A stretch of 64,000 nt of DNA, taken from positions 29,636,001 through 29,700,000 of the forward strand of contig OZ024748.1 of NCBI GenBank assembly GCA_964016885.1, in the 5' to 3' direction. This stretch comes from Eledone cirrhosa (lineage: Eukaryota). Of this stretch, positions 2,415 to 64,000 are shown in pieces. A program made the translations under genes and the position numbers. Below the pieces are notes generated by a model. The model worked only from the letters and a program-made list of their open reading frames with translations. It was not told the DNA's origin and searched no databases. Every line of letters begins with the position of its first letter. Positions within the stretch are counted from its first letter, which is position 1.

Positions 2415-4363
2415 AATTGGGTCATACCCATTAACTGGCGTAGCAGCAGCATCGTTAACTGCCACAAGGGCAAAGGAGACACTCTAGAATCTAGACAGAG
2501 AAAACTGTAGAGGCATTAAGTTGGTTGACCAGGTCATGAAGGTCATAGAAAGAGTTATCACACAGCTGATTAGGGACTGAATTAACCTTGATGAAATACA
2601 GTTTGGATTTGTGAAAGGTAAAAGTACCACAGATAGTCTCTTCCTCGTAAGGCAACTGCAGGAGAAGTACCTAGCTAAAAGTAAACCCCCTTTACTTGGA
2701 GAAAGCCTTTGACAGAGTCCCCCACTCCATTATCTGGTGTAGATGAGTGGCTTGTGAAAGCTATACAAGCCATGTATAGTGGAACAGTCAGCAAGGGTAG
2801 AATTAACAATGAATATAGTGAAGAATTTAGCATACAAGTAGGTGTTCACTAAGGCTCCGTCCTTAGCCCCCTCCTGCTTATTATTGCCCAGAGGCTATAA
2901 CAGAAGAGTCTCAGACTGGCTGTCCATGGGAACTTCTGTATACAGATGATCTAACTCTCATAGCTGAATCTATGGCAGAATTAGAGAAGAAATTTCAAAC
3001 CTGGAAGCATGGCTTAGAATCAAAAGGTCTTAAAGTTAACTTGTCTAAAACTAAAGTTCTAGTATGTAGAAAATAAAATAGGGCACAGATTCTCTCTGGG
3101 AAATGACCTTGCTCAGTGTGCAGGAAAGGAGTAGGTAAAATTTCCATTCTATGTCTCAAAAGCTATGGGTACATAAAAGATGTAGTGGGTTCACAGGTAG
3201 GCTATCAAAGAACGTAGGCTTTATATGTGGCTGATGCTCAAGTGCAGTAAATAGCATGTGCCCACAGAATACTAGCTACTTCAATTGCCAGAGGGCTCTG
3301 TAGGAAGAGACAAGAGTTTCTGTTACCTGAGTGATGAAATCAGCAGTGGAGGAGGGTGTTCTGAAAGTACAGTAGCCAGAGTAAGAATGGGATGGAGAAA
3401 GTTCACATAGCTAATACCATTGTTAGCTACAAAAGGTTTTTCCCTTAAAACGAAGGGCAGATTGTACAATGCAAGTATACGAAACAGCAATGTTACATGA
3501 TAGTGAGACCTGAGAACTGTGCGCAGAGAACCTGCGAAGATTGGAAAGAAATGAAGCATGCATGCTCCGATGGATGTGTAATAGTAATATACACGAATGG
3601 CAAAGCGTAAATGAAATGAGAAATTAGGCATAAGAGAGATCAGATGCAGTATACTAGAGAAGAGTTTGTATTGCTAAAGGACGACAGCTGTATAAAAAGA
3701 TGCAGGGTGATCAAAATTGATGGAAGCTATGGAGTAGGAAGACCTGGTATGAGGTGATAAAAACTGACTTTGTGCAATTGCACCTCTCAAAGACAATGAC
3801 ACAGGATCGAGATCTTTGGTGTTATGCAGTAATACAGAAGACCCGCCTTCCATGCATATGGACTTAAATATACATCTAGGAGGTACCTCTTAACCACTAT
3901 ACGCTCCTTCCATACACCCACCCTCTTACTTCTGTCCACACCACCCTTACACTGTAAAGTTATGTTGGTATCACAAAAAACATCCAGCCCACACTATAAA
4001 GTGGTCATCTAGGTGTGTCACAACAAAAAGCACCCAACCCACACTGTAAAGTGGTCGTGTAGGTGTCACGACAAAAAGCACCCAACCCACACTGTAAGGT
4101 GGTCTTGTAGGTGTCACGACAAAAAGCACCCAGCCCACACTGTAAAGTGGTCGTGTAGGAGTCACAACAAAAAGCACCCAGCACACACTGAAAATGTGGT
4201 TGGCATTAGGAAGGGCATCCAGCTGTAGAAATCTAGTCAGAAACAGTCCTATATGAGCAAAACAGAGTCATCTGACCCAACTTGCCTCTAATGGGACAAC
4301 CCGTCTAATCCATGCTAGCATGGAAAATGGACATTAAACGATAATGATGATGATGATGATGAT
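2415..4363 (+). mobile_element. Degenerate RTE LINE copy (RT, PHD relic, 3' UTR with ~45-bp tandem repeats, (GAT)n tail)
   Basis: Colinear with the 62-63 kb copy but with many stops and frameshifts; extends further 5' (GIKLVDQVMKVIERV). Confidence 0.9.
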
Positions 4364-6954: not shown

Positions 6955-7162
6955 TTAATACCAAACTGCCCTTGGTTTTATGATACAAAATTGTTTGTTT
7001 TAAAGTGTTAATATTTATCTGAAAACCTGCCATAAAATATTTAAGATATGTTCTAAACAGCATCTTAATAACGAGAAGATTAGTTATATTACTAAATCTC
7101 TCAAAATTCTTGATTATTTTCAAAACTTCATGAATATTTTAAGCAGTGTCTTTCATTAGAAA

Positions 7163-7873
7163 TCATCATCATCATCAGGTTTAGCGTCCGTGTTCCACGC
7201 TTGCATGGGTTTGGACGGGGGTTTTCCCACTTGAGGCAAGAGTGGTTGTCTTGCTCGCATAGGACTGTCTGGCGGGTTTTCTACAGCTGGATGCCCTTCC
7301 TAACACCAACCACATTTACAGTGTGGGGCTGGGAGGTTTTTACCGTGTTGCCTACACGGCCACATTACAGCGTGGACTGTCTGGCGGGTTTTCTACAGCT
7401 GGATGCCCTTCCTAACACCAACCACATTTATAGTGTGGGGCTGGGAGGTTTTTACCGTGTTGCCTACACGGCCACATTTACAGCGTGGACTGTGTGTTTT
7501 CTTGTCGTGACACCTACACGATCTCTTTTGTTTCGGCCTGGATGTTGTGGGACCAACATAACTTTACATTGAAAGGGGCGGTGTGGGACGGGGGGTGATG
7601 CCTACTGACTGTAGTAGGTTTTTACTTTGTATTTAGGTAAGGCGGGTCTTCTCTATTACTGAGGACTGCCAAAGGTCTCGGTCCAGTGACATTGTCTTGG
7701 AGAGGTGTAAGCGTGTGAGGTCGGAATTTATCAGCTCGTCCCAGGTTTTTCTGGGTCTGCCTACTCCGTGGCTACTGTCTATCTTTATTGCCCTGCACTT
7801 TGTTATACAGCTGTCGTCTTTCATGCGCATCACGTGACCGTACCAACATAGCCTTCTCTCGAGTAAACAACAT
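7163..7873 (-). mobile_element. Young RTE LINE 3' fragment
   Basis: Near-identical to 62050-62667, with an internal 112-bp tandem duplication. Confidence 0.92.
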
Positions 7874-26300: not shown

Positions 26301-29300
26301 CAAATCCTATCAGTCAATAAAGTACATTGTTAGGTAGTGAGGTTGATATATTATAATTGACTGTGTCCTCTGCTTGAATTTCTCGTACACTAAATTATTA
26401 TTAATATTACTGTTTTAGGTTAATTTTTTATGCTGACACTGGTTGATCAGGTTGTTCTGAGATAAGACAAATCAGATGACCGCATCCTGCTCAGACAATT
26501 TTGGCATGATTTCTAAAGCTGGATGTACTTCCTAATGCCAATCACTTTATAGCAAATTGGATAGAATACTTTGTGGTATTTATTTCGATTCTCTTCCCTC
26601 TGAGTTCAAATCCTGCCAAGGTCAACTTTACCTTTCCTTCATTCAAGGTTGATAAAAAAAGCACCAGTCTAGTACTGGGACTATATCTCTTTCACTTTCT
26701 GTCTATCCTTCTCTGGAAGAAATCTGCTGTGTTCAGACCTGGAGAGGGGATGGGCTCCGCCAGGTTTTAAAAAATGCCTTGAAATGCTTTAAGCCGATAC
26801 AACATCCCCTAGCTCCCTCGGGAGTTACAGGACAAATGAAAAGAAAATGGCTATATTTACTATAGTGTATGACTATATTTACTGTAGTGTATGGCTTATA
26901 TTTACCCTAATGTATGTCTAAATTACCATAGTGTATGTCTATATGTACTGTAGGGTATTACTATATTTACCATAGGGCATGTCTATATGTACTGTAGTGC
27001 ATGTCTATATGTACAGTAGTATATGTCTATATTTTCTCTAGTGTATGTCTATATTTTCTCTAGTGTATGTCTATTTGTACTGTAGTGTATGTCTATATGT
27101 ACTGTAGTGTATGTTTATATGCTGATTAAGTTGATTTCAATGCATTACTGGTGCTTTACTTTATCAACCCTTTAAGGATGAAAGGGAAATCTAACTGTGG
27201 CAGGATTTTAACTCAGAATGTAAAAGGATGTAACTATATGCCACAAAGCATGTTTTGCAATGCTCTACTGATTCGACCAATCCACCAGGTTAATGAAACA
27301 ACATATCTTACATCCATAATGTTTTATATTCAGTATTTATGTCAGTATTTATTGTTCTTAGCTCTCAAGTTATTTTCTACACAATATTTGGAGTGAGTTC
27401 ACCCAGTTTTGATATGGCAATTGTTAGCATATCAATGTCCTCTTCCTTCCTCTCTTTCTCTTCCATGAATTATATAATCGTGGTCTTTGTTATGATATAA
27501 TGGTGTATTAAGGTAGGTGGAGATGTGTAAGGTGTTCTATACAGATTTTGTTACCTGGCAGTATAAATAAATATAAAAGCACATTAAAAAATATATATAC
27601 ATCACTGATAATACCTTACTGGCACCACTCATGTAAGGTAATTATTTAAGCACCATGGAGATTATAATTAACAGCACTAGGGTTAGAGCTTCTAACTACA
27701 CTGCCAAGGAGCAGGGAGGGTCAGTGAATAATGGATGGGTTGTCTCTGAGACAGAAAAATATAAAGAACTCAGTTTTGTCCTGCAGAAGAGCCATTAAAA
27801 TTGGGAGGACTGTTAGGGTGCTGGAGAAAAGAAAGAAGCTGTGTTATCTGTTTGAGGAAAGTGGTACGCTGATCCTTGTGACCCAAGAACACGGGATCCT
27901 ACATGATGAGCCCATAAAGAGAGCGATGATTGGAAGGAGGAGCCAGCTCATCAGCTAATGTTGCAGTAGGAGGAGTGGGGCTTGTTTTGAGTGTAAGAGC
28001 CAACCTATTAGTGAGGGAGATTATACCTGTCTCCCCGAGAGTTTTGAATGTTATCTTCAATGGAGACCCAAGGATGACAGTCATCGCAGCCTATAGTCCA
28101 ACTGAGGGGGACAGTGATGAGAGTGCAGAGGAGTTCCATGAGGAAGTGTGTTCACCATACAAGCTCACAACATCCTGCTTGTTCTGGGTGACTTCAATGC
28201 ACATCTGAGTAAGGAGAGTAGTGAAGATCCCTGCTGGTACTTCCATGACAATATCAACTGAAACAGGAGACTACTGAGGGACACCCTGCTGGAGGCGAAC
28301 CTGATGGCAACCAACCTAAGGTTTAGGAAGAAGCTGGGGAAGATATGGACCTACATCTCTGATATGCATCTGACCAAGTCCCAGATTGATTTCATTCTGG
28401 TGAGGAGGAAGTGGCAGAATAGTATTCTGAACACAGAACCCTACAGTTATTTCAGTACATTGGGCAGTGGTCACTGGCTTATGAGTGAGGTCTAGGAGAG
28501 TTTAAAAAAGAGTAAGGCTAAGCCATGGAGAGCTATCTGTGACCGGGGAGCTATCAAGGAAGATAAGTTACAGGAGAGGTGCACAGGTGAGCGAATTAGC
28601 AGCGGAGGTGGGTGTTCGGAAAGTACAATAACTAGGGTAAGAACGGGATGGAAGAAGTTCAGAGAGTTACTGCTAGCTGCAAAAGGCTTTTCCTTCAAAA
28701 TGAAAGGCAGACTGTATGATGCGTGTATACGAACAGCAATGTTACATGGTAGTGAGATCTAGGCGCTGTCTGTAGAAGTTTTGCGCAAATTAGAAAGAAA
28801 CGAAGCTTGCATGCTCCGATGGATGTGTAACAGTAATATACGTGAACGGCAAAGCATAAATGAACTGAGAGAGAGACTGAGCATAAGAGGAATCAAATGC
28901 TGTGTGCAGGAGAGGAGGTTACGTTGGTATGGACATGTGATGTGTATGAAGGATGACAGCTGCATAAAAAGGTGCAGAGCACTAGAAGTCGATGGAAGCC
29001 GCGGAGTGGGGAGACCCAAGAAGACCCGGGATGAGGTGATAAAAGCCGACCTTATCCAATTGCACCTCTCAAGGGCGATGACACACGACCATGACCTCTG
29101 GCGTCATGCAGTAATACAGAAGACCAGACCCCCCATAGGTACAAGCCGAAGCTGAAGCATATAGACAATATGCCCCCACCCGCTCTCACTGCAAATTGGT
29201 CGTGGAGGTGTCACGGCAAAAAGCACCCAGTACTCACTGTAAATGAGGTTGGTGTTAGGAAGGGCATCCAGCTGTAGAAATCAAGCCAGAATCAGTTCCT

Positions 29301-38300: not shown

Positions 38301-41300
38301 TCTCCATTGTCAGTAACGAAGTCTTGCTACTTTACCCAGACAGTTACTACGTCAAGTGGCTCAACAGTTCCTTGATCCACGGTAAGATACTGCATTATTA
38401 TTATTACTAGCAGAAAAACCACCCTCAGCTGGTTTTTCTGCTAGCATGTGTAGTGTGTATATTGATATTATACATAAATATATATGCATGTAGATATGAT
38501 ACATCAAATAAAATCGTAATTGATAATATACACAGAAATTGAACGAAGACTGTGTTACACTGTCTTCTGTAATCAGTAAAGTAATCCATGATATATTAAA
38601 AAAAGACGATATTATATATAAACTGCATTAGGAGAAAATTAGCGACGGAAATATGTGATATTTTTATTATATTTTTGTTATAATATAACGGCCGCTAACC
38701 GGAAGTGTTGACATTTGAAGATACTGCATTATTATTATTATTATTATTAGTTAAAGGGCGGTGGATTAGCAGTATCAGTAGAGTGTTGGACAATATGCTT
38801 TGCAGCATAGAGTTGCAGCTCTTTATGGCCTGAGTTCAAATCCTGCCGAGGTTAGCTTTATTTTTCATCCTTTTGGGGTTGATAAATAAAGCACCAATAA
38901 TGTACTGGTTCGATTGAATCAACTTTCCCTCCCCACAAAATTGTTAGCCTTGTGTCTAAATCAGAAACCATTATTATTAGTTTTATTTTTGTTGCGCTCC
39001 ATCACTGCATTACTGAGCACAGTTCTGTGCGTCTTGGGTATGTGCTGCAAGGGTTTTGGTGGTGTTTGTTCTACTGTATTGAGAGTACTCTTTGTAATAT
39101 GTGTGCAGTGTATTATTGTTATTATTATCATTTTATGAGACTGGAAGTGTGTATGACGATTGAACAGAAAGAGTATAGTGTCTAAAAGGACTCCATGGTC
39201 TCGACGATTGTATGGCAACCTCTCTAGTGTTGGTGCCAGTGGTAGTACTGGTGCCACGATAAAACACACTCAGTCCATTTTGTAAAGTGGTAGTACTGGC
39301 ACCATGTTAAAACACGCTCTGTAAAGTGGTAGTACAATAAACCACCTAGTCCACTCTGTAAAGTGGTAGTATTGGCGCCATGATAACAACTGGGTGGCAC
39401 ATTATGTTCTTTCACAACACATTTCATTTCATGTTGCTTTTCGATAAAACTTATGAGATACCTTGTATCTCATAAGTTTACATAGGTATGAACTGTAACA
39501 ACAACATAATAGCACTGGAACCCCTATTATTAGGACACCTGAGAAAGCTCCTATGAGATAACAACCTCAGAGGCAGCTAAACCTACACAAATGTGAGCTG
39601 CAACAACAACACAATAAGATTTGGGTCCCTATCATTAAATCATCTGATGGGTCTCTATCATTAAGTTACCTGAAAAACCTCCTCTAAGATACAACCTCAT
39701 AAGCTAACTAAACTTTTGTAGGTATAAGTTGTAAATTTTCTATTAATTCCTACAGTCTATATGTGATGTTTTTGTGGAAGTAACTGCATATCTTTATGTA
39801 TTTCCTTGCAGAATTATGGAACTTGATATTCTTTCTCTCCAACCTGGCGCTCTTCATATTGATGCCTTTCTCTTACTTTTTCACAGAGTCAGAGGGATTT
39901 TCTGGCTCAAAGAAGGTCAGTACACGCACACAGACACACTACACATACTACATACATACAATTTTCTCTCTCTCTCTCTTATATATATCATCATTTAATG
40001 TCCATCTTCCACACTAGCATCTCTCACCCACCTTTTAACACATATCATAAGAATTTCATAATGAATGAAAAGTTAACATTTCCTGTCAGTTGTCATTGAC
40101 CAATAACATCAATCTGTACCCATGGGAAATCGGGTCTTCTGTATTACTACATAACGCCAGAGGTCTCGGGCCTTTAGATGCAATTGAGCAAAATCAGATT
40201 TTATCACTTCTTCCCTGGTCTTCTTGGGTCTCCCCACTCCAAGGCTTCCATCAACGTTTTTATGCAGCTGTCATCCTTCATAAGCATCACTTGTCCATAC
40301 CAACGTAATCTCCCCTCCTGCACACAGCATTTGATTCCTCTTATGCTTAGTCTCTCTCTCAGTTCGTTTATGCTTTGCCATTCATGTATATTACTATTAC
40401 AGCTCCATTGGAGCATGCAAGCTTCATTTCTTTCTAATCTATGCAAATCTTCTGCACACAATGCCCAGGTCTCACTACCATGCAGCATTGCTGTTTGTAT
40501 GTACACATGTTACTGTACTTTCAGAACACCTACCTCTGCTGCTAATTCGGTCACCTAGGTAGCAGAAGCTGTCTACTGTTTCTACAGAGCCCTCCCAGAA
40601 TTTAGTAGTTTTTGTTTCCTGTGACTGTTTGCTGCTTACTGTCCCGGTGCAACTGCTACATGTAAAGCCTACATTTTTAGCTAAACTTCTTGAGATCCCA
40701 CTACATCTCTTGTGTACTCATAGTTTGCATTTGGGGCAGTGGATGCAATCTACACCATTCCTACTTACTGAGCAAGGCCATTTCCCTGAGGGTACAGGAA
40801 TAAGACTTGTACAGGCTTGCCCCTTATCTCCCTTTGTTGTGGAACTCTTCTTTGCTAGATGTCAAAGTGCTTTTGTCACTTTGCAAATGACTTACTCATG
40901 GACACACGCGTTGAGTACTTCTTTTGTCATAAATGAGTCTCAAATACTCTTTGCTTCAGAAATAATGTCTTAAGAAAAGAGTGTTCCAGAGAAGTCCAAT
41001 GCATGTGTATCGGCTGGGTCAGCATTGACAAAAGGGTAAGGGTCAGAAGAGTGCTTCACCCTTGCATTGCAGAATTCGCTGTACACATGGTGATCAAGGG
41101 TTACTGCTTTGGTAGAGGATCGGGTAGGTGTGTCAATTACATTGCTGAGGTTGTTGAATATGGTGTTGGCGTGATCATCAGCCTCCGCTCCATTGGTCTG
41201 AGCCTGTTGTTGGGGATGTCGCCGTTGTTGGCGGGTGACACTCTCGTGGTGGTGTAAGATACTACACTTGGCGTATTTGTGGTTGTAGGCAGGGCATTTT

Positions 41301-44300
41301 TTCATACGTTCCTGTATATGGTGTCTGTGGCCTTATTTCCCACAGTGGCTACAAAGGGCAGGTGAAGGTTGAGTTATCGGACCTGTTGACGTATCAATTC
41401 CTCTTCTGATATCTGTAGGGGCTGGAGGTGGCTACGCTTGAGGTGATGTTGTATTCCAGAAGACGACTGGCTGAGCGTTTTCCGTTTTCTTTCACCTCGA
41501 CATACCTCAAGGCGTCTTCGAGGGTCATGTCCTACTGTGAGTTATTGAGGATGTCTAGGCGGATCAATAAGGGCGTCATGGACCATGATGTTATTATAGT
41601 TGACTGTAGTGTGGCATGAGGCCAATGTGCATTCCACTTTGAAATTGCAGACATGGCCTGACCTCAGAGATTGGCAGTGAAGGCCATAATCAGTTCATCC
41701 CGGTCCTGGCGTATCTGTTGCAGATGCACTTGAGCATCCATGACGTCTTCTTGGCAGACGGCCAGCGACTTAATGTTGCAAAGGGCTGTTTGCTCATCAC
41801 TGGAAGCTATGGCACCGAATGTTCGTGTGAGGTCCTTCCTCAAGTCGTCGTTGCAGCACTCGAGTAGTTGGAAAACAACATCCCTACCTGTAAGGTGCGT
41901 GACACTTTGGTAGTCCGACCATCTCTGCTCAAAGTAGGCCCATTCTTCACTCATTCCAGCTGCGGAGATGACAGGGGCATCATACTTTCTTGGGTGCAGC
42001 TGCTCCTGTAGTGGGTGGCGGTGCATTCGTGCTGTGAGCTGTTGAGCTGTGAAGGTTGATGAGGCAAATCAGCACCTCCTTGGGAATGTTGGCGGACCAT
42101 GTCGTGCCACATTCAGGTGCAGGCAGGGTATGTCGCTCATGTTGGTTTGCAGGAGGTTGAGTGTACTTTTTTTAATCATAAATGAGTCTTGAACACTCTT
42201 TGCTTTAGAAATAAAGTCTTAAGAAAAGCAAAGAGTGGATCTGGGTTCTGTTTTCTCTTCTACTTATGAGGACCTTTGTCTTTGTCAGGTTGACTTTGAG
42301 ACCCCTTCTTTCTAAGCCCTGCTTCCATGTTTGGAATTTCTTTAGTTCACAATAGATTCAGCTATAAGTGTAAGATCCCATGGGTATCTGTTATAGCCTG
42401 CAATACAATAATAACCAGGAAAGGGCTAAGAACAGAGCTCTGGTGAACACCAACCTATATGCTAATACTCCTAAACAATTTTTAATTGCACCATTAAATA
42501 CAGTCATTAAAAGACTTTTAATGCACCCCTTAACACTTTTGATACCAACCAAGCCAAAAGGGTTCCTATTTAAGTTAAAATCTTCCAGCATAATTATATA
42601 TAAGACCATAATTATATATGCCCCAGCATGGCCTCAGCCGGATGGCTGGAACAGGTAAAAGGGTAAGAACCACGTTAAGTTACTGACATAATAATGAAAT
42701 AGTTAATTCTTTGAACTAAAATTAATCTGTCTGAGTATCTACAATCTCTCCATTTTATATTTCAGGGGATCATGGCACGAGTCTACGAGACTGCAGTGGT
42801 GTTGGTCATTTTAGGAATCCTTGTGTTTGGTATAGCCTGGGTGGCCTCGGCTCTCATAGATGGAGATAAGAGCAGTCGACAGACCCTGTTTGGTGAGTAG
42901 TAGTAGCAGTGGTAGTAGAGGTGTTGGTTGTGATGATGGTGCTGGTGCTGGTGATGGTTGTGGTTGTGATGGTGCTGCTGGTCACAGTTGTGGTGCTGGT
43001 GATGATGATGGTTGTGGTCGTGATGGTCATGGCTGTGGTGCTAATCGTCATAGTGGAGGGATGGTGGTGGTGCTGGTTGTGGTTATTGAGGTGGTGGTCT
43101 TGGTGACAATTGTGGTGTGGTGGAGGTAGTGGTCGTGGTTCATAGTTTTTACTATATTGTGATGGTTGTAGCTGCAGGTCAGTCTGAGCGAGTTTTTACT
43201 ATATTGTGATGGTTGTAGCTCCAGGTCAGTCTGAGCGAGTAAACCTATGTTCAAAGATATTCCAGCCATGACCACCTGTCTTTTTTTGTATATATTTTTA
43301 CTTTATTTTACTTAATTCTATTTAATCAGTCATATATGTTAACACTAATTCTCAACTAATGTGTAAAATACTACATATTGGTTATTATATTATACTAGCT
43401 GAATTACCCGGCGTTGCCTGGGTTACTGCTGTTCTTATTCAGATTAGTAAGCAATAAATATGAAGATATGTTTTTTTTTCTCATAATTATTTCAAAATAT
43501 CTATATTTTATAAAAAAAAAAATATCAAAATTGTAATGATAATAGAATTTAGAAATAAAAATCTGTCAATCTTGAAGCACCTTAGGGTAAACAATATTCA
43601 TTGTGTAATTTTTTGTTGGTGTCCAAATGAATAAATTGTTGCTACACACATACACTCACACACACACATACACCCTCACACACACACTCACACACACACA
43701 TACACCCTCACACACACTCACACACACATATTAAGACAGACACGCACAGACATACATTCACGCACACCTGTCTGTCATCAGATGTATGTGTAGATGTGTG
43801 TATGTGTTTAATTCTCTGAGGCCTAACGTATGTAACAAACTCGCAAACACACACACTCACAGAGACATACGCACACATACAATGTGATGTCGTAGTTGTG
43901 GTGGTGGTTTACTATAGTTTACTATAGAAAGTTTATTTGAGATAAAATATTATAAAATAAAAATTACATGTTGACACTCACGGGGTCTAATACTGTTACC
44001 TTGTAAAATTTGATTTGATTTGGTCCAGCTGTTTGGGAATGCATAAGAACAGACAGACAGATGAAGATTTTATATATATATATAGACTAGCAGAAAACCA
44101 CCCGGGGAGCGGTTTTCTGCTAGTCTATATATCTAAAACAGAGAATGTCTGTCTGTCAGCTCACTAAAACTTGAGAACCATCCAACCGATTGTTTTCAAA
44201 CTTTAGACATGTAATACTTATGGTCCTGTGAGTGTTTTGAGCAAAAATTATTTCAAATTTTCAATGCCCTAGGGACCTCATTAGGCGATTTAGCGTTCTC

Positions 44301-54500: not shown

Positions 54501-57500
54501 ACGTATGCGCAAACAGAGACAACAATAAATAAATAAAAAATAGAATAAGTAAACATTACAACAATACAAAGGAAGGAAACATAATAGTATCACTGATGAT
54601 GTCACAGGTGTGTGACGAAAGAATTCTGAGACTATATATATATTTATATCTATATTTTTAACTGTTGGTCAATCAATGATAAACATTGATTGCCAGCTAA
54701 ATTAACTATATGAATATAAAATATGCAGAAGCGAAAACCAACCCAAACTGTGTTTTAGTATATATTTCTGGCAATATTATAACATGACCTTCCCCAAATA
54801 TAATTGTATATATGCGAGCAAGACAATCACTCTTGCCTCAAGTGGGACTACCCCCGTCCAAACCCATGCAAGCGTGGAACACGGACGTTAAACGTTGATG
54901 ATGATGATATATATATATATACACACACATAATGTTGTCTCGAAGACTAAGATGGAGCGCAAGTGTGTTAGAATTTATAGAATAATGAGAAAAATTCAGT
55001 ACAAGAATAGCTGTTAAAACTGCAAGATGCTGTAAATGACAGCATCCGGTAAAATCTCCCTCAAAGGATAGAAGTGTGTTGGCCAGCAGAAGTGATAGGA
55101 AGAAAGAAATAGAGGAAGAAAATGAATGAGACAAAATCACACACATATCTTTTAACCTCTTTAGCTCTCAGATTGGCTGTGGTTTTGTACGATTTAATTG
55201 GGAGGACCATATAAAATTGTTGGCTCATGTATGTGTGTGTGTGTGTCATTGTTTAATGTCTATTTTCCATGCTTGCATATATGTGTGTATTATACATAGT
55301 GTATATGTATTGTGTGTGTACTTACATATACATATATGATGTATATATATGTTTGATCATGTGTGTTTGTACTTATGTCTACATCTGCCTCTGTGTATGT
55401 GTGTATTTCTTGTGGCAGTTTGCTCATGAAAATAGAGAGCTTGTGGTGTGTCAAATTACAAAATCCTCTCAGTTTTTGCCCTGTTAATTATGTATCCACT
55501 TTGTGTGTGTGTACTGACATGTGTATGAGTGTGTGTGTATGCTCAAGTGCCTGTGTATGTGCTATATATGTAAATGTGTGTACGCGTTCACATTCCTGTA
55601 TGTATGAATGTGTGTGTTCACATGCCTATGTTTGTGTGTGTCTATGTTCTCACGTGTGTGCTAGCATGTGTACATTATTTTACTAAATGACAAACAATTT
55701 CTATAAAACCTACTTGTGTGTATGTTATGAACAATAACACAATCTTGAGTTTGTTGTTTTTTGTTTTTTTTCCTAGATTGTTCTAGAATTTGACTCTTAT
55801 TCATATATTTCTAGGCTTGTGGAAATAACTACTAAAATGTGTATCTTTTATTATTTTATATTTGGTTTTTGCTTGGATTGACTGGTTTGATTTGTAACTA
55901 TTACCATTATCATTGCTATTATTCAGGGCGGTGGATTGGCAGTATCGGTGGAGGGTCGGACGCCATGCTTTCCAGCATAGTTATGTCCCTTTACGATCTG
56001 AGTTCAAATCCCGCCGAGGTTGACTTTGCCTTTCATCCTTACGGGGTCGATAAAATAAAGTACCAGTAATGCACTGGATAATTGCTGGCCTTGTGCCTAA
56101 AGTAGAAACAATTATTACTATTGGATTGGCAGTATCGGTAGAGGGTCGGACGCCATGCTTTCCAGCATAGTTACGTCCCTTTACGATCTGAGTTCAAATC
56201 CCACCGAGGTTGACTTTGCCTTTTATCCTTACGGGGTCAATAAAATAAAGTACCAGTAATGCACTGGGTTATTGCTGGCCTTGTGCCTAAAGTAGAAACA
56301 ATTATTATAATTCTTTTATTGCTATCATTATTACTATATTCCATAAGCCATTAATTCCAACCTCTGCCTCAGCCTCTAAAGTAACCTCTACTCTAGCAGA
56401 GTTAGTCATTTTGTGGTTAAAAGGTTGTGTGTGTGTCTGTATGTACTCACACATTGTGTGTGTATACTCAGACATGTATGTGTGTGTTTGAATGTGTAGA
56501 TAACCAGATGCGTCATTATATAAGATAATATACTAGATTTGCTTACAGTCTCATCTTGAAAAGACACACATGTTTTCCCACATGTATAACATTTTCACAC
56601 CTACAAGTATATTGTATTAACATTAACACATATGCATGTATCCATATACATACATATATCCAAACACACACATGTATCCATATATATGCTTGTGCTCTCT
56701 CAGATACATGTAATATCCTCACTAATGTACATATTATATCTTTATATATTTTCAGATGTGTGGCATATCTACCTACCCTATCTCTATTCATGCATATCTT
56801 TCCTGGGTGTATTGGCATTGCTATGTGAGTATTGTTTTATAACTATTGAGAGTTTGAAACAGCTGTAAAGTGGTTGGCAATAGGAAGGACATCAAGCTGT
56901 AGAAACCATAAAGGTTTGAGAGGACTCTTCAGTTGACTCTTCAGGACATGACAACCTTTCAGGTGCTGGGGCCATAATATAATGCACCTTGGCATTAGAA
57001 ACTGTAGAAACAATGCCAGCATGAAAGAACGGAGAAATATGATGATGATTGGGAGTGGTATTGTTACTCCTGTGTAACATTTGTTGGGTTTAGTCACCAC
57101 CCATCTGACCATGAGACAGATTGTAGTGGGTTATTTGGTGACACTTGTGCCATCTGATCTCTGACCTGCCTGGAGAAAAAATGTTGAGGTTTTGATTTAT
57201 TTTTTAGTGTTTAGTCAGATGGAGAGGGGGTTACCTTGACCCTTTTCAGTGCTTCAGTGACTGGTGGGAGGGAGGAAGGAATGTATCCTCAAACCATAAT
57301 TCTTGCCCAAATGCTTGCAACAGAGTGGACTTTACTAAAACATTCAAGGATTTGCTATTAAACCAAGTGATGGATTAAATAAAATCTACCACCCAACAAT
57401 AGAGTAGACTCTGTTAAAGGTACCAAATGACTAGGTGTTGATGTTAAATCAGGTGATGCATTAACCTCTTCAGTCCCGTAGACGAGATAACTCGTCTTAA

Positions 57501-60500: not shown

Positions 60501-61105
60501 CAGATATCCTTAGGCCTTCCTCTTTATCTTTTCTCTTGTGTGTTCCAAGTCAGGACTTGCTTTGTGGTACTAGCATTAGCTGGGGTTTAACCGTGTGATG
60601 GACTGACTGGGTTTATTTCAGTCTGCCCAGCTGAGCAAAACTGTGTCCCTTCCATTTTATGTTGGTAGGAAGTATTGGATATTAAATTGTTAAAACATTG
60701 TTAGTTTCTTATTTTCTTTCATTTGCTCCTTCTTTTCCCCTCTTCCAGGTTTTCCATATGGTGGTCTATAACTGTAATTTCTGCATGTTAGAATGTATTT
60801 GAATGCTAACTTGGGGTAGACATAAACTCTGTAAGCTATAAAGTAAAGGGAACTCTTTATGGGAAGCACTAATTTTGCATGAATGTTATTTTGAAAAACA
60901 AACATATTATAAAGCCATTTTAACTCTTTTGTGACTATATTCTGGGAAATACATTGCCTGCGTTTTGCAGTTAATTTTGAAAAATAATCAAGTATTAAAA
61001 ATGATTTAGTAAATGTTTCTTGTTTCAGAAAAACGAAGACAAGTGTCTTCATTACGAAGAAATCTTGGTTATCCACTTGTCATTTTAATATTGTTAGCTC
61101 TCACA
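16399..61105 (+). CDS. LMBR1: LMBR1/LMBR1L-family (lilipod-like) multipass membrane protein; spliced CDS, exons 1-11, 3'-incomplete
   Basis: join(16399-16467,35493-35586,36860-36890,38242-38381,39812-39915,42766-42892,56756-56824,58175-58239,59180-59264,59870-59953,61029-61105) = 945 nt, 315 aa, no stops, all introns GT-AG with matching phases (0,1,2,1,0,1,1,0,1,1,0). Motifs such as GAVLLLPISIVSNEVLL..YYVKWLNSSLIH, LWNLIFFLSNL..FILMPFSYFFTESEGFSG, YLPYLYSCIS and CTPVGFARMFTVMGQL match LMBR1 as I recall it. Probably co-orthologous to vertebrate LMBR1 and LMBR1L. Confidence 0.95.
16660..16825 (-). repeat. Short (TA)n-associated repeat ending in a 44-bp-stem hairpin
   Basis: Diverged second copy at 50851-50985; GGTTCAATT B-box-like head; hairpin at 16660-16755. 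Confidence 0.6.
16826..17122. repeat. Compound (TA)n/(TG)n microsatellite, representative of dozens in the window
   Basis: Direct inspection; source of the YIYI/CVCV pseudo-ORFs. Confidence 0.95.
19112..19256. mobile_element. hAT (Charlie-like) MITE relic
   Basis: caagcatgggcaac ... gtttgcacacgactg termini with internal gggcc(a/g)ca motifs. Confidence 0.5.
19884..20072 (+). mobile_element. SINE family B copy (others near 8025, 11865, 22130, 25330, 26090, 26590 and 38755 on +; near 1130, 1620, 27150, 32705 and 37635 on -)
   Basis: Same core as 55925-56308. Confidence 0.8.
20376..20725 (-). mobile_element. SINE family A copy
   Basis: Matches 4738-5095. Confidence 0.85.
20916..21401. mobile_element. 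MITE-like element with ~135-bp terminal inverted repeats and a microsatellite core
   Basis: tggcatacgttaagacgggcgttccggaaag... mirrored at about 21275-21401; no clear TSD. Confidence 0.75.
21511..21575 (+). ncRNA. Degenerate minimal hammerhead-like motif (probable PLE terminal relic)
   Basis: tattttat-CTGATGAGG...CCTCT-GAAA-tatg-TA-taataaaata. Confidence 0.35.
26850..27120. repeat. Minisatellite, 22-bp unit, about 12 copies
   Basis: Unit tagtgtatgtctatatgtactg, seen at 27061, 27083 and 27105. Confidence 0.9.
27770..28570 (+). mobile_element. Degenerate LINE apurinic-like endonuclease domain (RTE-like)
   Basis: Translated pieces QEH, GGVGLVL, VIAAYSPT, LGDFNAH, SQIDFILV and LGSGH (SDH equivalent), interrupted by frameshifts. 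Confidence 0.85.
28575..29405 (+). mobile_element. RTE LINE 3' fragment with (GAT)n tail
   Basis: LERNEACMLRWMC..RLRWYGHVM..GRPKKT, then the family 3' UTR. Confidence 0.9.
31340..32170 (+). mobile_element. Tigger/pogo-type transposase C-terminal relic
   Basis: CWKKAWPECVQDY..LGGEGFDDI..DEDLLELT..EEEE..KKQRQQLPITMF, typical of TIGD1/Tigger tails; interrupted by stops. Confidence 0.8.
32950..33468. repeat. Minisatellite, 41-bp unit, about 12.5 copies
   Basis: Unit tagatttagtcattaaactgtggccatgctggaacactaca, 41-bp period (33312 to 33353), no spacers. Confidence 0.95.
33615..34161 (+). mobile_element. RTE LINE extreme 3' fragment
   Basis: Matches 28990-29405; UTR tandem repeats and (GAT)n tail. 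Confidence 0.85.
35493..35586 (+). CDS. LMBR1: LMBR1-family exon 2 (IFLLLSILLILLSYVGIQLIRKKADTDECYT), first TM helix
   Basis: ttacAG acceptor, GTAAGT donor, phase 0 to 1, hydrophobic helix followed by basic residues. Confidence 0.88.
36860..36890 (+). CDS. LMBR1: LMBR1-family exon 3, 31 nt (GDEDVYVYKIS)
   Basis: polypyrimidine tract and caacAG, GTAAGT donor, phase 1 to 2; DED..V..IS motif. Confidence 0.9.
38242..38381 (+). CDS. LMBR1: LMBR1-family exon 4 (LLLCTLTLAISFGAVLLLPISIVSNEVLLLYPDSYYVKWLNSSLIH)
   Basis: tacAG / GTAAGA, 140 nt, strong family motif. Confidence 0.96.
39812..39915 (+). CDS. LMBR1: LMBR1-family exon 5 (ELWNLIFFLSNLALFILMPFSYFFTESEGFSGSKK)
   Basis: ttgcAG / GTCAGT, 104 nt, strong family motif. 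Confidence 0.96.
40205..42460 (-). mobile_element. Degenerate RTE LINE split by a Gypsy-like insert
   Basis: RT C-terminus and PHD relic at 40205-40795; the upstream RT part (GLKVNLTKTKVL, GVHQ-region) resumes at about 42235-42460. Confidence 0.82.
40836..42232 (-). mobile_element. Ty3/Gypsy-like gag fragment with ~70-bp direct repeats
   Basis: EEWAYFEQRWSDY..QLLECC..DLRKDL gag-like segment, degenerate zinc knuckle CPAY..C..H; direct repeats at about 40910-40979 and 42157-42228. Confidence 0.7.
42766..42892 (+). CDS. LMBR1: LMBR1-family exon 6 (GIMARVYETAVVLVILGILVFGIAWVASALIDGDKSSRQTLF)
   Basis: tttcAG / GTGAGT, 127 nt, WVASALID motif. Confidence 0.95.
42896..43140. repeat. Degenerate (GGT/GAT)n low-complexity tract directly after exon 6
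   Basis: Direct inspection. Confidence 0.85.
43395..44086 (-). mobile_element. Non-autonomous Helitron-like element
   Basis: 5' TC at 44086, (GTCT)n near the 5' end, subterminal hairpin acccggcgttgcctgggt, 3' CTAG at 43395-43398 followed by T. Confidence 0.7.
47195..47470 (-). mobile_element. Second Penelope-like RT fragment (Neptune-like C-terminus)
   Basis: Minus strand reads VHFLDISV..FFKPTDSHSYLDFTSSHPIHTKHSIPYSQLLRIHCLCS. Confidence 0.8.
47641..47784. repeat. Perfect 144-bp palindrome with no spacer
   Basis: 72-bp arms centred on cactat|agtg region (axis 47712/47713). Confidence 0.95.
48319..49077 (+). pseudogene. Penelope-like reverse transcriptase ORF (5'-truncated, disrupted downstream)
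   Basis: 252-aa frame with PLE RT motifs; the endonuclease lies beyond a stop and frameshifts. Confidence 0.85.
50671..50721 (+). ncRNA. Non-canonical hammerhead-like motif in PLE pseudo-LTR
   Basis: agttt-CAGAAGA-tcccattaagggt-GAAA-gcag..ttgc-TT-aaact: all three stems can form, but the core is CAGAAGA instead of CUGANGA. Confidence 0.5.
53385..54633 (+). mobile_element. Third, degenerate Penelope-like element ending in a hammerhead motif
   Basis: RYVDD (YVDD at 53415-53426), TIDYPSKHPNNRL, HYAKPMAS..LVRMMKNVS, and GIY-YIG NVVYRIRC..C..YVGETAR (54089-54166); followed by (TA)n. Confidence 0.82.
54586..54633 (+). ncRNA. Minimal type I hammerhead ribozyme motif
   Basis: agtatca-CTGATGA-t-gtcaca-ggtg-tgtgac-GAAA-gaat-TC-tgagact: stem I 6 of 7 bp, 6-bp stem II, minimal stem III, at the 3' end of a PLE. 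Confidence 0.75.
55925..56308 (+). mobile_element. Tandem dimer of SINE family B (GAGTTCAAATCC B box, Meta-domain-like core, (ATT)n tail)
   Basis: Two ~190-bp near-identical units with gttgactttgcctttcatccttacggggtcgataaaataaagtacc. Confidence 0.85.
56756..56824 (+). CDS. LMBR1: LMBR1-family exon 7 (DVWHIYLPYLYSCISFLGVLALL)
   Basis: tttcAG / GTGAGT, 69 nt, YLPYLYSCIS motif. Confidence 0.95.
58175..58239 (+). CDS. LMBR1: LMBR1-family exon 8 (LCTPVGFARMFTVMGQLVVKPQ)
   Basis: ctacAG / GTCAGT, 65 nt, CTPxGxxRMFTVMGQL motif. Confidence 0.95.
59180..59264 (+). CDS. LMBR1: LMBR1-family exon 9 (FLHDIDSDLFQATLTEEDLLRKIKHSKC)
   Basis: ctacAG / GTAAGT, 85 nt, phase 0 to 1, fits the cytoplasmic loop. 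Confidence 0.88.
59325..59790. repeat. Degenerate tandem repeat filling intron 9
   Basis: Recurrent gttggttatctgatggct..ctcaagttgtc units. Confidence 0.65.
59870..59953 (+). CDS. LMBR1: LMBR1-family exon 10 (GPSKIANGRAGTDLFQRLEEVRKLKQEL)
   Basis: taaAG / GTAGGT, 84 nt, phase 1 to 1, coiled-coil-like; acceptor is less canonical. Confidence 0.82.
61029..61105 (+). CDS. LMBR1: LMBR1-family exon 11 (EKRRQVSSLRRNLGYPLVILILLALT)
   Basis: tttcAG / GTAAGT, 77 nt, RNLxYP motif followed by a TM helix. Confidence 0.93.
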
Positions 61106-62046
61106 GTAAGTAAACCTTTTCGACTTTTCTAGTGATGAGACATTCATATATATCATAAATTAGAATATAGTCTTTGATTTTTTACTTCTCCCTTGAGATT
61201 TATTTAAGTTCTTTACAAAGTGAAAGTGTGTGGCTTAGTGGTTAGAGAATTGGATTAGCAATTGTGAGGTTGTGAATTTGATTCCCGAACCAGGCAATGT
61301 GTTTATGTTCTTCAGTAAGACACTTTATTTCATGTTGCTCTTCCTGCCAGGAGTTGTGACCAATAGATAGTATCAGCAATGGAAACATTGTTTTGTCGGT
61401 CTGTTTTGACAAGTTCCACCACATACAGTAAGCATATGAAATCTGGGATTTTGTTATACTCAATTTAGAATAGGTACACTATATCCCTGCTTGTTGTCAG
61501 AGGTAACTAAAAAAGGCTGGCATTGGAAGAGCATCAAACCATAAAAAATAACCCCACGATGTGTCTGAAGCTTGTCATAGAGCCCACAAAGCCATTTTCC
61601 CTTAAAAATACTAATTGTTGATGTTTGCCAAAGCTTTATTGTTTGTTTCAAGACAGTTCCAAGGATTTGTGAACATGTGAATGAGTTTTTGTATATTTGT
61701 AGGTGTATGTATACAAAGTCACACTAATGTAATGAATACACGTTTCTTCAGTGTGTGTGTGCGTACACACCATATGCCTACATTTACATATTCAGTTCAG
61801 CTAACTTAAATAGAAAATCATTGAAAATCTTTGCAAATCTTTGCTGTATTGGATTTGGTGCATGTGTTAGTTTGCCATATATTTTTTTGTGCACACTTGT
61901 GTATATGTGTACGTGTTTATGCTGATGGCGCTAAATCTGAATATCTAAATATGCAGATCTATGTGTACTAATGTGGTCTGTGCATGTGTGTATGCAGATC
62001 TATACATCTATATGTACTGATGCTGTTGATAAATTTCTTCCTCTTT

Positions 62047-63778
62047 CATCATCATCATCATCATCATCAGGTTTAGCGTCCGTGTTCCACGCTTGCATGG
62101 GTTTGGACGGGGGTTTTCCCACTTGAGGCAAGAGTGGTTGTCTTGCTCGCATAGGACTGTCTGGCGGGTTTTCTACAGTTGGATGCCCTTCCTAACACCA
62201 ACCACATTTACAGTGTGGGGCTGGGAGGTTTTTACCGTGTTGCCTACACGGCCACATTTACAGCGTGGACTGTGTGTTTTTTGTCGTGACACCTACACGA
62301 TCTCATTTGTTTCGGCCTGGATGTTGTGGGACCAACATAACTTTACATTGAAAGGGGCGGTGTGGAGGGACGGGGGTGTGTTTTGATAGAGGTGCCTACT
62401 GACTGTAGTAGGTTTTTACTTTGTATTTAGGTAAGGCGGGTCTTCTCTATTACTGAGTACCGCCAAAGGTCTCGGTCCAGTGACATTGTCTTGGAGAGGT
62501 GTAAGCGTGTGAGGTCGGAATTTATCAGCTCGTCCCATGTTTTTCTGGGTCTGCCTACTCCGTGGCTACCGTCTATCTTTATTGCCCTGCACTTTGTTAT
62601 ACAGCTGTCGTCTTTCATGCGCATCACGTGACCGTACCAACGTAGCCTTCTCTCGAGTAAACAACATCTGATCCCTCTTATTTCTAATTTTTTCCTTAGT
62701 TCGTTTATGCTTTGCCGTTCACGTATATTACTATTGCACATCCAGCGGAGCATGCAAGCTTCGTTCCTCTCTAGTCTGCGTATATCCTCTGCACACAATG
62801 CCCAGGTCTCACTGCCATGCAGCATTGCTGTTCGTATGCAGGCATCGTATAACCTGCCTTTCATTTTTAGGGAGAACCCTCTAGCGGCTAATAGTGGTAT
62901 AAGCTCTCTGAACTTTTTCCATCCAGTTCTGACTCTAGCTACTGTACTTTCAGAGCACCCTCCCCCACTGCTGATTTTGTCACCCAGATAACGGAAGCTG
63001 TCCACTATTTCTATAGAACCCTCTGCGCAGTTGAAGGAGCTAGTATTTTGTGGGCACTTGCTGCTACTTATTGCACCAGAGCACCGGCCACATGTAAAAT
63101 CTATGTTCTTAGTTAGCTTACCTGTGATCCCACTACATCTTTTATGCACCCATACTTTGCATTTGGGACATAAAATGGAGTTTCTACCTACGCCTTTCCT
63201 ACACACTGAGCATGGCCATTTCCCCGATGGGACCGCCGCCTTATTTTCTTTCCTACAAACTAGAACTTTAGTCTTAGCCAGGTTAATTTTAAGGCCTTTT
63301 GATTCTAGGCCGTGCTTCCACGTTTGGAATTTCTTCTCTAGTTCGGTCATTGATTCAGCTATGAGCGTTAGATCATCTGCGTATAGGAGTTCCCATGGGC
63401 AGCCGGTCTTGAACTCCTCTGTTATAGCCTGAAGGGCAATAATAAATAGTAGGGGGCTAAGTACAGAGCCCTGATGGACACCAACTTTTACGCTAAACTC
63501 TTCACTATATTCGTTGTTAATTCTAACCTTACTGACTGTTTCTTTATACATGGCTTGTATAGCTCTCACAAGCCATTCGTCAACACCTAGTTTTCTAAGA
63601 GACCACCAGATAATGGAACGGGGGACTCTGTCGAAGGCTTTCTCCAAGTCGACAAAAGCTAAGTATAGGGGTTTACTTTTAGCTAGGTACTTCTCCTGTA
63701 GTTGTCGTACAATGAAAAGAGCGTCTGTGGTACTTTTGCCTGACACAAACCCGAACTGCATTTCATCTAGATCAATTC
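62047..63778 (-). mobile_element. Young 5'-truncated RTE-clade non-LTR retrotransposon (RT with inserted PHD finger)
   Basis: Uninterrupted frame with QFGF, FVDLEKAFDRV, GVHQGSVLSP, YADD (63372-63383), FRYLG, LRWYGHVMR and GRPRKTW; 3' UTR; (GAT)n tail; candidate 7-bp TSD cctcttt at 62040-62046 and 63779-63785. Confidence 0.95.
62427..63778 (-). CDS. RTE LINE reverse transcriptase ORF, 5'-truncated, no endonuclease domain
   Basis: 461-aa ORF in the track; the first ~11 aa come from flanking AT-rich DNA. Confidence 0.9.
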
Positions 63779-63798
63779 CCTCTTTATTTATATATATT

Positions 63799-64000
63799 TC
63801 TATATATAACATTCTTTGTCTCTGTCTGTCTGTCTGTCCTTAATGCATTCTCAAATGGCTCGACCAAATCAAATCAAATTTTACAAGGTAATAGTATTAG
63901 ACCCCAGCATTAACATGTAATTTTATTTTCATTTGGATTAAAACAATATAACATTTTATCTATAATAATCTTTCTATAGTCAACTATAATAAATGGACAT
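63799..64000 (+). mobile_element. 5' part of a Helitron-like element of the same family
   Basis: TC start, (GTCT)n, reverse-complement match to about 43900-44086. Confidence 0.7.

Follow-up and report, generated by a model that had tools for sequence, protein, structure and literature searches.

LINE retrotransposons of the RTE clade possess a single open reading frame (ORF) comprising an APE-type endonuclease and a reverse transcriptase (RT), and their hallmarks are a short tandem-repeat 3′ tail, 5′ truncation and a target-site duplication (TSD). The choice of target by LINEs is commonly ascribed to the endonuclease. An ORF1 is missing in some RTE clades (PMC4120745). The RTEs of catfish and nematodes, a BovB-like family of the genome studied here and RTE-2_OV of Octopus vulgaris, none of which carries a PHD finger, resemble the family described below in their single endonuclease-RT ORF, short-repeat 3′ tail, 5′ truncation and short TSDs; the latter family differs from them in having about 63 extra residues, with a PHD finger between RT motifs 6 and 7. 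RTE-2_OV was reported to have a C2H2 finger, and the searched portions of the article and of its supplements make no mention of a PHD domain for it (PMC9115989). By description, RTE-2_OV likely resembles our BovB-like family, which has C-terminal C2H2 fingers.

PHD fingers occur on other retrotransposons. In the ORF1s of CR1/L2 elements, their top match is Pygopus (PDB 2vpb and 3zpv) and a role in targeting was proposed only, no functional study being known in 2014 (PMC4120745). CR1/Crack elements have a 2A-PHD-endonuclease arrangement at the start of ORF2 (PMC3708506), and cnidarian retrotransposons of "different retrotransposon classes", with no position given in the portion consulted, are fused to PYGO-type PHDs (bioRxiv 10.1101/2021.11.30.470311). 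All of them share with the present family a Pygopus-type PHD borne by a retrotransposon, whereas the PHD of CR1/L2/Crack lies in ORF1, or N-terminally in ORF2 before the endonuclease, and that of the RTE family interrupts the RT of a single ORF. A further parallel is offered by MAGGY-like chromodomain Gypsy elements (cited in bioRxiv 10.1101/2021.11.30.470311), in which a transposon-encoded reader is also linked to an insertion preference; there, the reader is the chromodomain of an LTR-element integrase directed to H3K9me heterochromatin, whereas here the putative reader belongs to a LINE RT apparently directed to active gene bodies. Pygo-type PHDs on retrotransposons are already known, and no description of a PHD inside the RT of a LINE was found in the open full-text literature (Repbase and subscription journals being outside the scope of the search), with the proviso that a figure and Supplementary Table 6 of bioRxiv 10.1101/2021.11.30.470311 may list such an RT-internal PHD.

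Results

A 5′-truncated RTE copy with a zinc finger inside its RT

The window, i.e., the whole 64,000-nucleotide stretch of Eledone cirrhosa DNA analysed, contains the RTE copy under study, relatives of it and candidate exons of a host gene:

62040..62046, minus strand: target-site duplication AAAGAGG (7 bp), 3′ copy
62047..62069, minus strand: (GAT)n tail
62070..62426, minus strand: 3′ UTR
62427..63778, minus strand: 5′-truncated, stop-free RTE ORF with RT core, thumb and C-terminal region; endonuclease half absent
62982..62996, minus strand: RT motif 7 (FRYLG), where the RT resumes past the insert
63015..63254, minus strand: whole loop from RT motif 6 to motif 7 (residues 178-257), made of a linker, the PHD and a fast-evolving linker
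63081..63218, minus strand: Pygopus-like PHD finger, Cys4-His-Cys3 (W190-C235 of P0001)
63372..63383, minus strand: YADD catalytic motif (from the ORF translation)
63779..63785, minus strand: target-site duplication AAAGAGG (7 bp), 5′ copy
63786..63810, no strand: TA-rich tract immediately upstream of the insertion
2579..4362, plus strand: decayed copy (identity about 75%), its PHD broken near 3100-3240
40127..42470, minus strand: decayed copy with interruptions, its PHD broken near 40640-40790
7149..7873, minus strand: short 3′ piece belonging to the young family (identity 95-97%), without the PHD part
28577..29128, plus strand: 3′ fragment of an older subfamily
56704..56824, plus strand: weak candidate exon of an LMBR1-like host gene (Pfam LMBR1 E 0.14, below cut-off)
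61029..61105, plus strand: second candidate host exon, open and AG/GT bounded, without Pfam match

The region 62427-63785 (minus strand) is a single open frame encoding 452 amino acids (P0001), in which the RT was recognized by Pfam RVT_1 (E 1.3e-28). The motif WP-CSVC-x10-CPKC-KVWV-H-KR-C-x14-CGRC, which the preliminary description of this DNA had placed at 63081-63218, proved exact and is flanked by NLAKTKVL and IEIVDSFRYLG. The two decayed copies that it had mentioned are both present, and their fingers are broken: the copy at 2581-3849 (plus strand) has stops and a frame change within the finger, and the one at 40798-40496 (minus strand) has lost one Cys and acquired one stop and a 2-aa gap. 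Across the family, the (GAT)n tail has a median length of 25 nt.

Candidate LMBR1-like exons are spread on the plus strand of the window (35493-35586, 56704-56824, 59180-59264 and 61029-61105); one of the four tested yielded the weak Pfam LMBR1 match cited above, and the one at 61029-61105 may be LMBR1-like. On this weak evidence, the host gene of the window copy is likely an LMBR1-like gene, to which the element would be antisense, in or beside one intron. Two other observations concern the window: its CpG observed/expected ratio (CpG o/e) per 8 kb is 0.26-0.68, and the open stretches at about 48297-48942 (plus strand) presumably resemble a Penelope-type RT fragment.

The PHD-RTE family is young and its finger is conserved

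A 171-aa query over the finger retrieved 81,517 candidate matches in the 3.0-Gb genome. All 150 scored copies were 100% identical over these 171 aa and the median identity to one natural copy was 99.3% (108 copies), i.e., the family is very young and in a burst. In each of seven long copies (L031-L037), a single ORF, counting 1077-1078 aa when started at its first Met, encodes the endonuclease, the RT and the PHD, and the family exhibits the single APE-endonuclease/RT ORF, short-repeat 3′ tail, 5′ truncation and TSD of RTEs. The 5′ UTR of the full-length copies (L031-L047) consists of tandem monomers of about 200 bp in variable number, an organization that resembles mouse L1 promoters.

The closest named relatives come from Octopus bimaculoides (62%), O. 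vulgaris (61%) and then Hydractinia (52-56%), which are the sole sources of named PHD-bearing protein matches, hardly any of the protein clusters being named. A 69% relative (P0002), which its label assigns to a Herbaspirillum MAG and which lies on a contig of 1.5 kb, is likely animal DNA in a bacterial bin. The finger profile retrieved 946 clusters (50% identity) at E up to 1e-10; the flanking RT motif was found, by a strict pattern, in 83 of the best 150 clusters, many of the others looking like broken pieces of this same element. In a tree calculated after excision of the insert, 48 PHD-bearing rows (out of 59 dereplicated) fell on one side of a branch (SH-aLRT 100, one change) and 41 PHD-less rows, including the catfish and nematode elements, on the other side; this was a quick, midpoint-rooted tree with neither outgroup nor named Repbase RTE. 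The finger appears from this tree to have been acquired once and to mark one clade extending to cnidarians, two of the three protein searches having been seeded with PHD-bearing queries, such that losses of the PHD could be under-sampled.

The dN/dS values of the subfamily A versus B pair (comparisons with subfamily C were saturated at silent sites) were 0.113/1.26-1.48 for the PHD, 0.084/1.50 for the RT core and 0.53/1.34 for the downstream linker, i.e., ratios of about 0.08-0.09, 0.06 and 0.4, respectively. These values indicate that the finger is under purifying selection. Furthermore, conservation of the eight zinc ligands reaches 98-100% in 113 of the 121 proteins parsed and the full Cys4-His-Cys3 pattern is intact in 108 of these 113, on which grounds a chance pattern was dismissed. 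The finger is a trait of the family, as the preliminary description had claimed, and it is a real, conserved and probably functional domain. A PHD-less subfamily of the element was considered and rejected: the 30 best matches to a PHD-less query, which was picked to catch deleted copies and gives no deletion rate, turned out to be copies of the family whose deletions are scattered (28 breakpoint pairs, almost every one distinct).

The finger has a PHD fold and resembles Pygopus

The insert was recognized by Pfam PHD (PF00628; cut-off 24) with 26.5 bits in the whole window protein (residues 192-235), 26.7 bits in a full-length family protein and 33.6 bits (E 4e-8) when the 66-aa piece was tested alone. 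The C1_1, C1_2 and RING profiles were all under their cut-offs (top score, C1_2, 25.5 versus 26), and a C1 or RING identity was rejected. An AlphaFold2 model of the RT with its finger had a pLDDT of 88.8 (86-94 over residues 191-240), and the best structural matches of the RT model were R2 (Z 18.5, rmsd 4.2, 337 aligned) and L1 ORF2p (Z 18.2, rmsd 3.6, 366 aligned). The finger modelled alone (pLDDT 68, 16 sequences) retrieved PHD-containing chains at all 44 top places of a wide structure search, its best match being BPTF (Z 5.8, a modest value for a small domain; rmsd 2.6, 57 aligned), and Foldseek placed Pygo PHDs at ranks 1-6 (E 0.03-0.07). Both profile and predicted fold agree with the PHD identity initially proposed.

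Pygo PHDs were also the best PDB profile matches (E 4.5e-8 to 5.8e-7; next match 1.4e-6), with 2vpb and 3zpv at the top. The H3K4me2 cage of Pygo1 is formed by W366, Y341, D352, V350 and A356, with I357 and L382 nearby (PMC2726290). The six Pygo residues Y341, V350, A356, I357, W366 and L382 map to W190, V199, S203, I204, W212 and L224 of our finger. Among 151 relatives (two of 153 with another spacing were set aside), the residue types at W190, V199, S203, I204 and W212 are kept together in 137, W212 in 148 and the near-invariant N202 in 150; L224 is kept in 91% of 113 proteins. H3K4me readers invariably have a Trp at the position of W212, as the divider of their cage (PMC3241642), and the finger has this Trp two residues ahead of the His together with an aromatic/hydrophobic cage, as in Pygo-type PHDs.

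The likeness to the Pygopus PHD, i.e., the fold and the six pocket residues, comes with differences. First, in the alignment, the acidic D352 (lip of the K4me2 pocket) and E360 (anchoring of R2/A1) of Pygo are absent from the finger: D352 is deleted along with its loop, making the finger two residues shorter than Pygo there, E360 is not kept, and the position following Cys3 is occupied by T/S/G/Q/N/K. A mutant of E360 in Pygo lost binding (PMC2726290). Second, loop 2 is shorter. Third, the finger is basic (median net charge +7, range +1 to +12, n=153; conserved K/R at 189, 197, 215 and 216), not acidic like Pygo1 (−6 for residues 341-395, counted by hand). A reader of unmethylated K4 of the BHC80/AIRE type was rejected: the acidic cluster before Cys1 is absent, S-G-K-W/Y-P being found there, and the cage Trp is present. 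As regards the initial idea of a chromatin reader, the residues of a methyl-lysine cage are kept, and the basic character of the domain and the loss of both D352 and E360 count against it; a histone lysine in methylated form is the likely ligand of the finger. As to the donor of the finger, P0566, in which a 2A-like NPGP motif precedes PHD fingers that have the short loop of the RTE finger (hhalign 97.5%), may be a lead to the donor lineage.

The finger occupies an RT loop approximately equivalent to R2 6a

The finger lies between RT motifs 6 and 7, in a loop about 63 aa longer than that of PHD-less RTEs. Among 230 proteins parsed, the YADD-YLG span measures 67-76 aa in the 77 RTE proteins that lack a PHD and about 130 aa in the 153 that carry one, in agreement with the short linker initially ascribed to ordinary RTEs, the RTs of which do without the insert. 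The profile alignment of Bombyx R2 (R2Bm) ends at residue 669, i.e., profile position 353 and residue 178 of our protein, this position between motifs 6 and 7 being approximate as it was read from the end of an HMM alignment. The 6a loop of R2 (residues 672-677), between motifs 6 and 7, reads the upstream target DNA and is required for nicking (PMC10499050). According to this alignment, the PHD occupies a loop equivalent to R2 6a, to within a few residues. Both are insertions between RT motifs 6 and 7, and they differ in that R2 6a is a short loop reading bases at a fixed site, whereas the RTE insert is a folded two-zinc domain of an element with no fixed target sequence.

Local target choice is shared with a PHD-less LINE

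For the analysis of insertion sites, we took 80 of 150 listed insertions with about 10 kb of sequence, plus 30 with short flanks (two insertions without anchor and one tandem duplicate were left out), and 40 random regions of 9.9 kb from contigs 1 and 2 served as controls; metagenome loci were unsuitable for such an analysis, being short and broken. The junctions of the PHD family were (TA)n-like in 52 of 94 cases at the 3′ side and 56 of 88 at the 5′ side, as compared to 5.1% of random 20-mers and 18.3% of those following an AT (P 1e-15 versus junctions). The visible target duplications were mostly of 4-8 bp, often starting with the (G)AT of the tail; one insertion (L114) appears to have a far longer duplication, of about 40 bp and with a single mismatch.

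(TA)n targeting was rejected as the function of the finger because a PHD-less CR1-like family is also inserted in (TA)n, in 26 of 30 copies as compared to the 52 of 94 junctions above. In random DNA, TA content does not track CpG o/e (rho 0.24, P 0.15). The CR1-like LINE, itself young (L349:769-3162 and L350:1345-2553; 3′ ends L288-L317), resides almost exclusively in (TA)n microsatellites by the threshold used; its ORF1 has a Myb/SANT-like domain (E 0.0024), polyQ and CCCH fingers, and the Myb-like domain could be the cause of this preference.

PHD-RTE insertions lie mostly in CpG-poor DNA

Two PHD-less LINE families of the same genome served as controls, each with 30 of 150 listed copies and the downstream flank only. 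The first is the CR1-like family (17,847 candidates, 99-100% identical), the ORF1 of which has Myb-like and CCCH parts, with no PHD in the one full ORF1 examined. The second is the BovB-like RTE with C-terminal C2H2 fingers (64,074 candidates, 96-99%), the RT region of which was only partly observed. This BovB-like element (L147:1126-2154, L151:8835-9665) has three such fingers, a microsatellite-rich 3′ UTR and a (TATG)n end. CpG o/e was calculated on masked flanks, keeping the loci with at least 1000 bases.

The median CpG o/e was 0.465 for the flanks of PHD-RTE (under 0.6 in 57 of 72 loci), 0.733 for random DNA (11 of 38), 0.695 for CR1-like flanks (7 of 21) and 0.672 for BovB-like flanks (10 of 28). 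The PHD-RTE flanks differed from each of these three sets (Mann-Whitney P 9e-6, 2.4e-4 and 2.2e-5, respectively), whereas the CR1-like and BovB-like flanks were the same as random DNA (P 0.65 and 0.37). Restricting PHD-RTE to its downstream flanks gave 0.405 (44 of 57 under 0.6). When the loci with at least 800 bases of unique DNA were taken alone, CpG o/e was 0.285 for PHD-RTE (55 of 60 under 0.6) versus 0.69 for random DNA (12 of 37), 0.71 for BovB-like (4 of 22) and 0.89 for CR1-like loci (0 of 8; this strict masking leaves 8 of 30 CR1 loci), and TpG/CpA was raised in the unique PHD-RTE flanks. The bias was found at TA targets (21 of 23) and non-TA targets (26 of 28) alike. Within the random regions alone, copies of the family occurred in 6 of 12 CpG-poor regions versus 2 of 25 CpG-rich ones (P 0.008). 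The CpG o/e of the young element itself is 0.66-0.71. Steering to promoters (H3K4me3, CpG-rich) was not supported: flanks above 0.8 were found in 5 of 72 cases versus 9 of 38 in random DNA. Other copies of the family were present in the flanks of 67 of 79 PHD-RTE loci, as compared to 9 of 40 random, 10 of 30 CR1 and 3 of 30 BovB loci, a crowding that also fits homing on older copies.

Fragments of R4/Dong-like (L144, L149, L159) and Tx1-like (L063, L151, L156) LINEs were mostly seen in CpG-rich random regions; pooled PHD-less LINEs occurred in 1 of 12 CpG-poor versus 7 of 25 CpG-rich regions (P 0.23), and LINE families may partition the genome.

In O. bimaculoides, 5mC was reported in the bodies of broadly expressed genes and not in transposons (PMC9476566), hence the CpG-poor compartment, CpG depletion being a proxy, likely corresponds to long-methylated bodies of broadly expressed genes. 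The bias is a correlation, since a single PHD family was compared with two PHD-less ones that also have a different endonuclease, ORF1 and timing. Of the steering of insertion initially suggested, one part is supported, i.e., young copies lie in a non-random, CpG-poor compartment as compared to random DNA and to two PHD-less families. The local preference for (TA)n is not the work of the finger.

Discussion

We propose that the finger is a methyl-lysine reader that tethers insertion to gene-body chromatin, a reading that we hold to have about an even chance of being right. The target DNA would consist of the long-methylated bodies of broadly expressed genes. The loop bearing the finger would face the upstream target DNA, as does 6a in R2. 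The ligand would be a methylated lysine of gene-body histones, H3K4me1/2 (Pygo type) being the likeliest mark and H3K36me the alternative, as opposed to H3K4me3 of promoters, and the basic surface would add affinity toward nucleosomal DNA. The finger would thereby keep the RT beside its target, on the chromatin of transcribed genes; once tethered, the endonuclease would nick AT-rich or (TA)n DNA close by, with the (GAT)n tail priming on AT microhomology, a local step common to PHD-less LINEs. The finger would derive, through a single acquisition, from a PHD that other LINEs already possessed. A point against such a reader is that H3K4me2/3 is not classically located in gene bodies.

Rather unlikely, in our opinion, is that the finger operates as a nucleic-acid clamp like R2 6a, its basic face gripping the target DNA or RNA to raise the efficiency of priming, with perhaps a taste for methylated or nucleosomal DNA, and reads no histone mark. 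The match of the loop to 6a, the positive charge with its four conserved K/R positions and the loss of the acidic H3-binding residues all agree with a clamp, which nevertheless leaves unexplained why most relatives keep the surface Trp along with the other cage residues; moreover, plain DNA binding predicts no family-specific CpG-poor compartment, and the (TA)n choice occurs in a PHD-less family as well. It is improbable that the finger binds a non-histone partner, such as a host factor acting in elongation, repair or silencing, or a methyl-lysine thereon, which brings the element to transcribed genes. PHD fingers do bind non-histone proteins too (PMC3241642), the near-invariant N202 and the shortened loop are unlike Pygo, and the CpG bias fits transcribed regions; yet there is no candidate partner, the surface that binds BCL9 in Pygo is shortened here, and the best-kept surface is the histone pocket. 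Finally, it is likewise improbable that the bias has nothing to do with a merely structural finger and results from homing on older copies, from activity at a time when only transcribed chromatin was open, or from old copies drawing methylation to their flanks, for although the family copies crowd the flanks and a single family was compared with two, CpG depletion is strongest in unique DNA, octopus transposons were reported as unmethylated (PMC9476566) and the CpG content of the young element is not low like that of its flanks, equally young PHD-less families lack the bias, and the RT folds without a finger in PHD-less RTEs.

Conclusions

Together, these data lead us to propose, tentatively and with slightly less than even confidence, that a widespread clade of animal LINEs has built a methyl-lysine reader into the RT loop that touches the target DNA, for insertion into the introns of broadly expressed, methylated genes. 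If true, it would be the first LINE to encode its own guidance of target-primed insertion by a chromatin mark, and its loop would lend itself readily to the grafting of targeting modules onto the RTs of LINEs. That an RT loop accommodates a whole domain bears on the engineering of LINE and R2 gene-writing tools. Having the finger within the polymerase, together with a family-specific bias as compared to two controls of the same genome, makes the old idea of targeting by PHDs testable. With 81,517 candidate matches in 3.0 Gb, the family would, if gene-body targeting is true, shape the introns of housekeeping genes.
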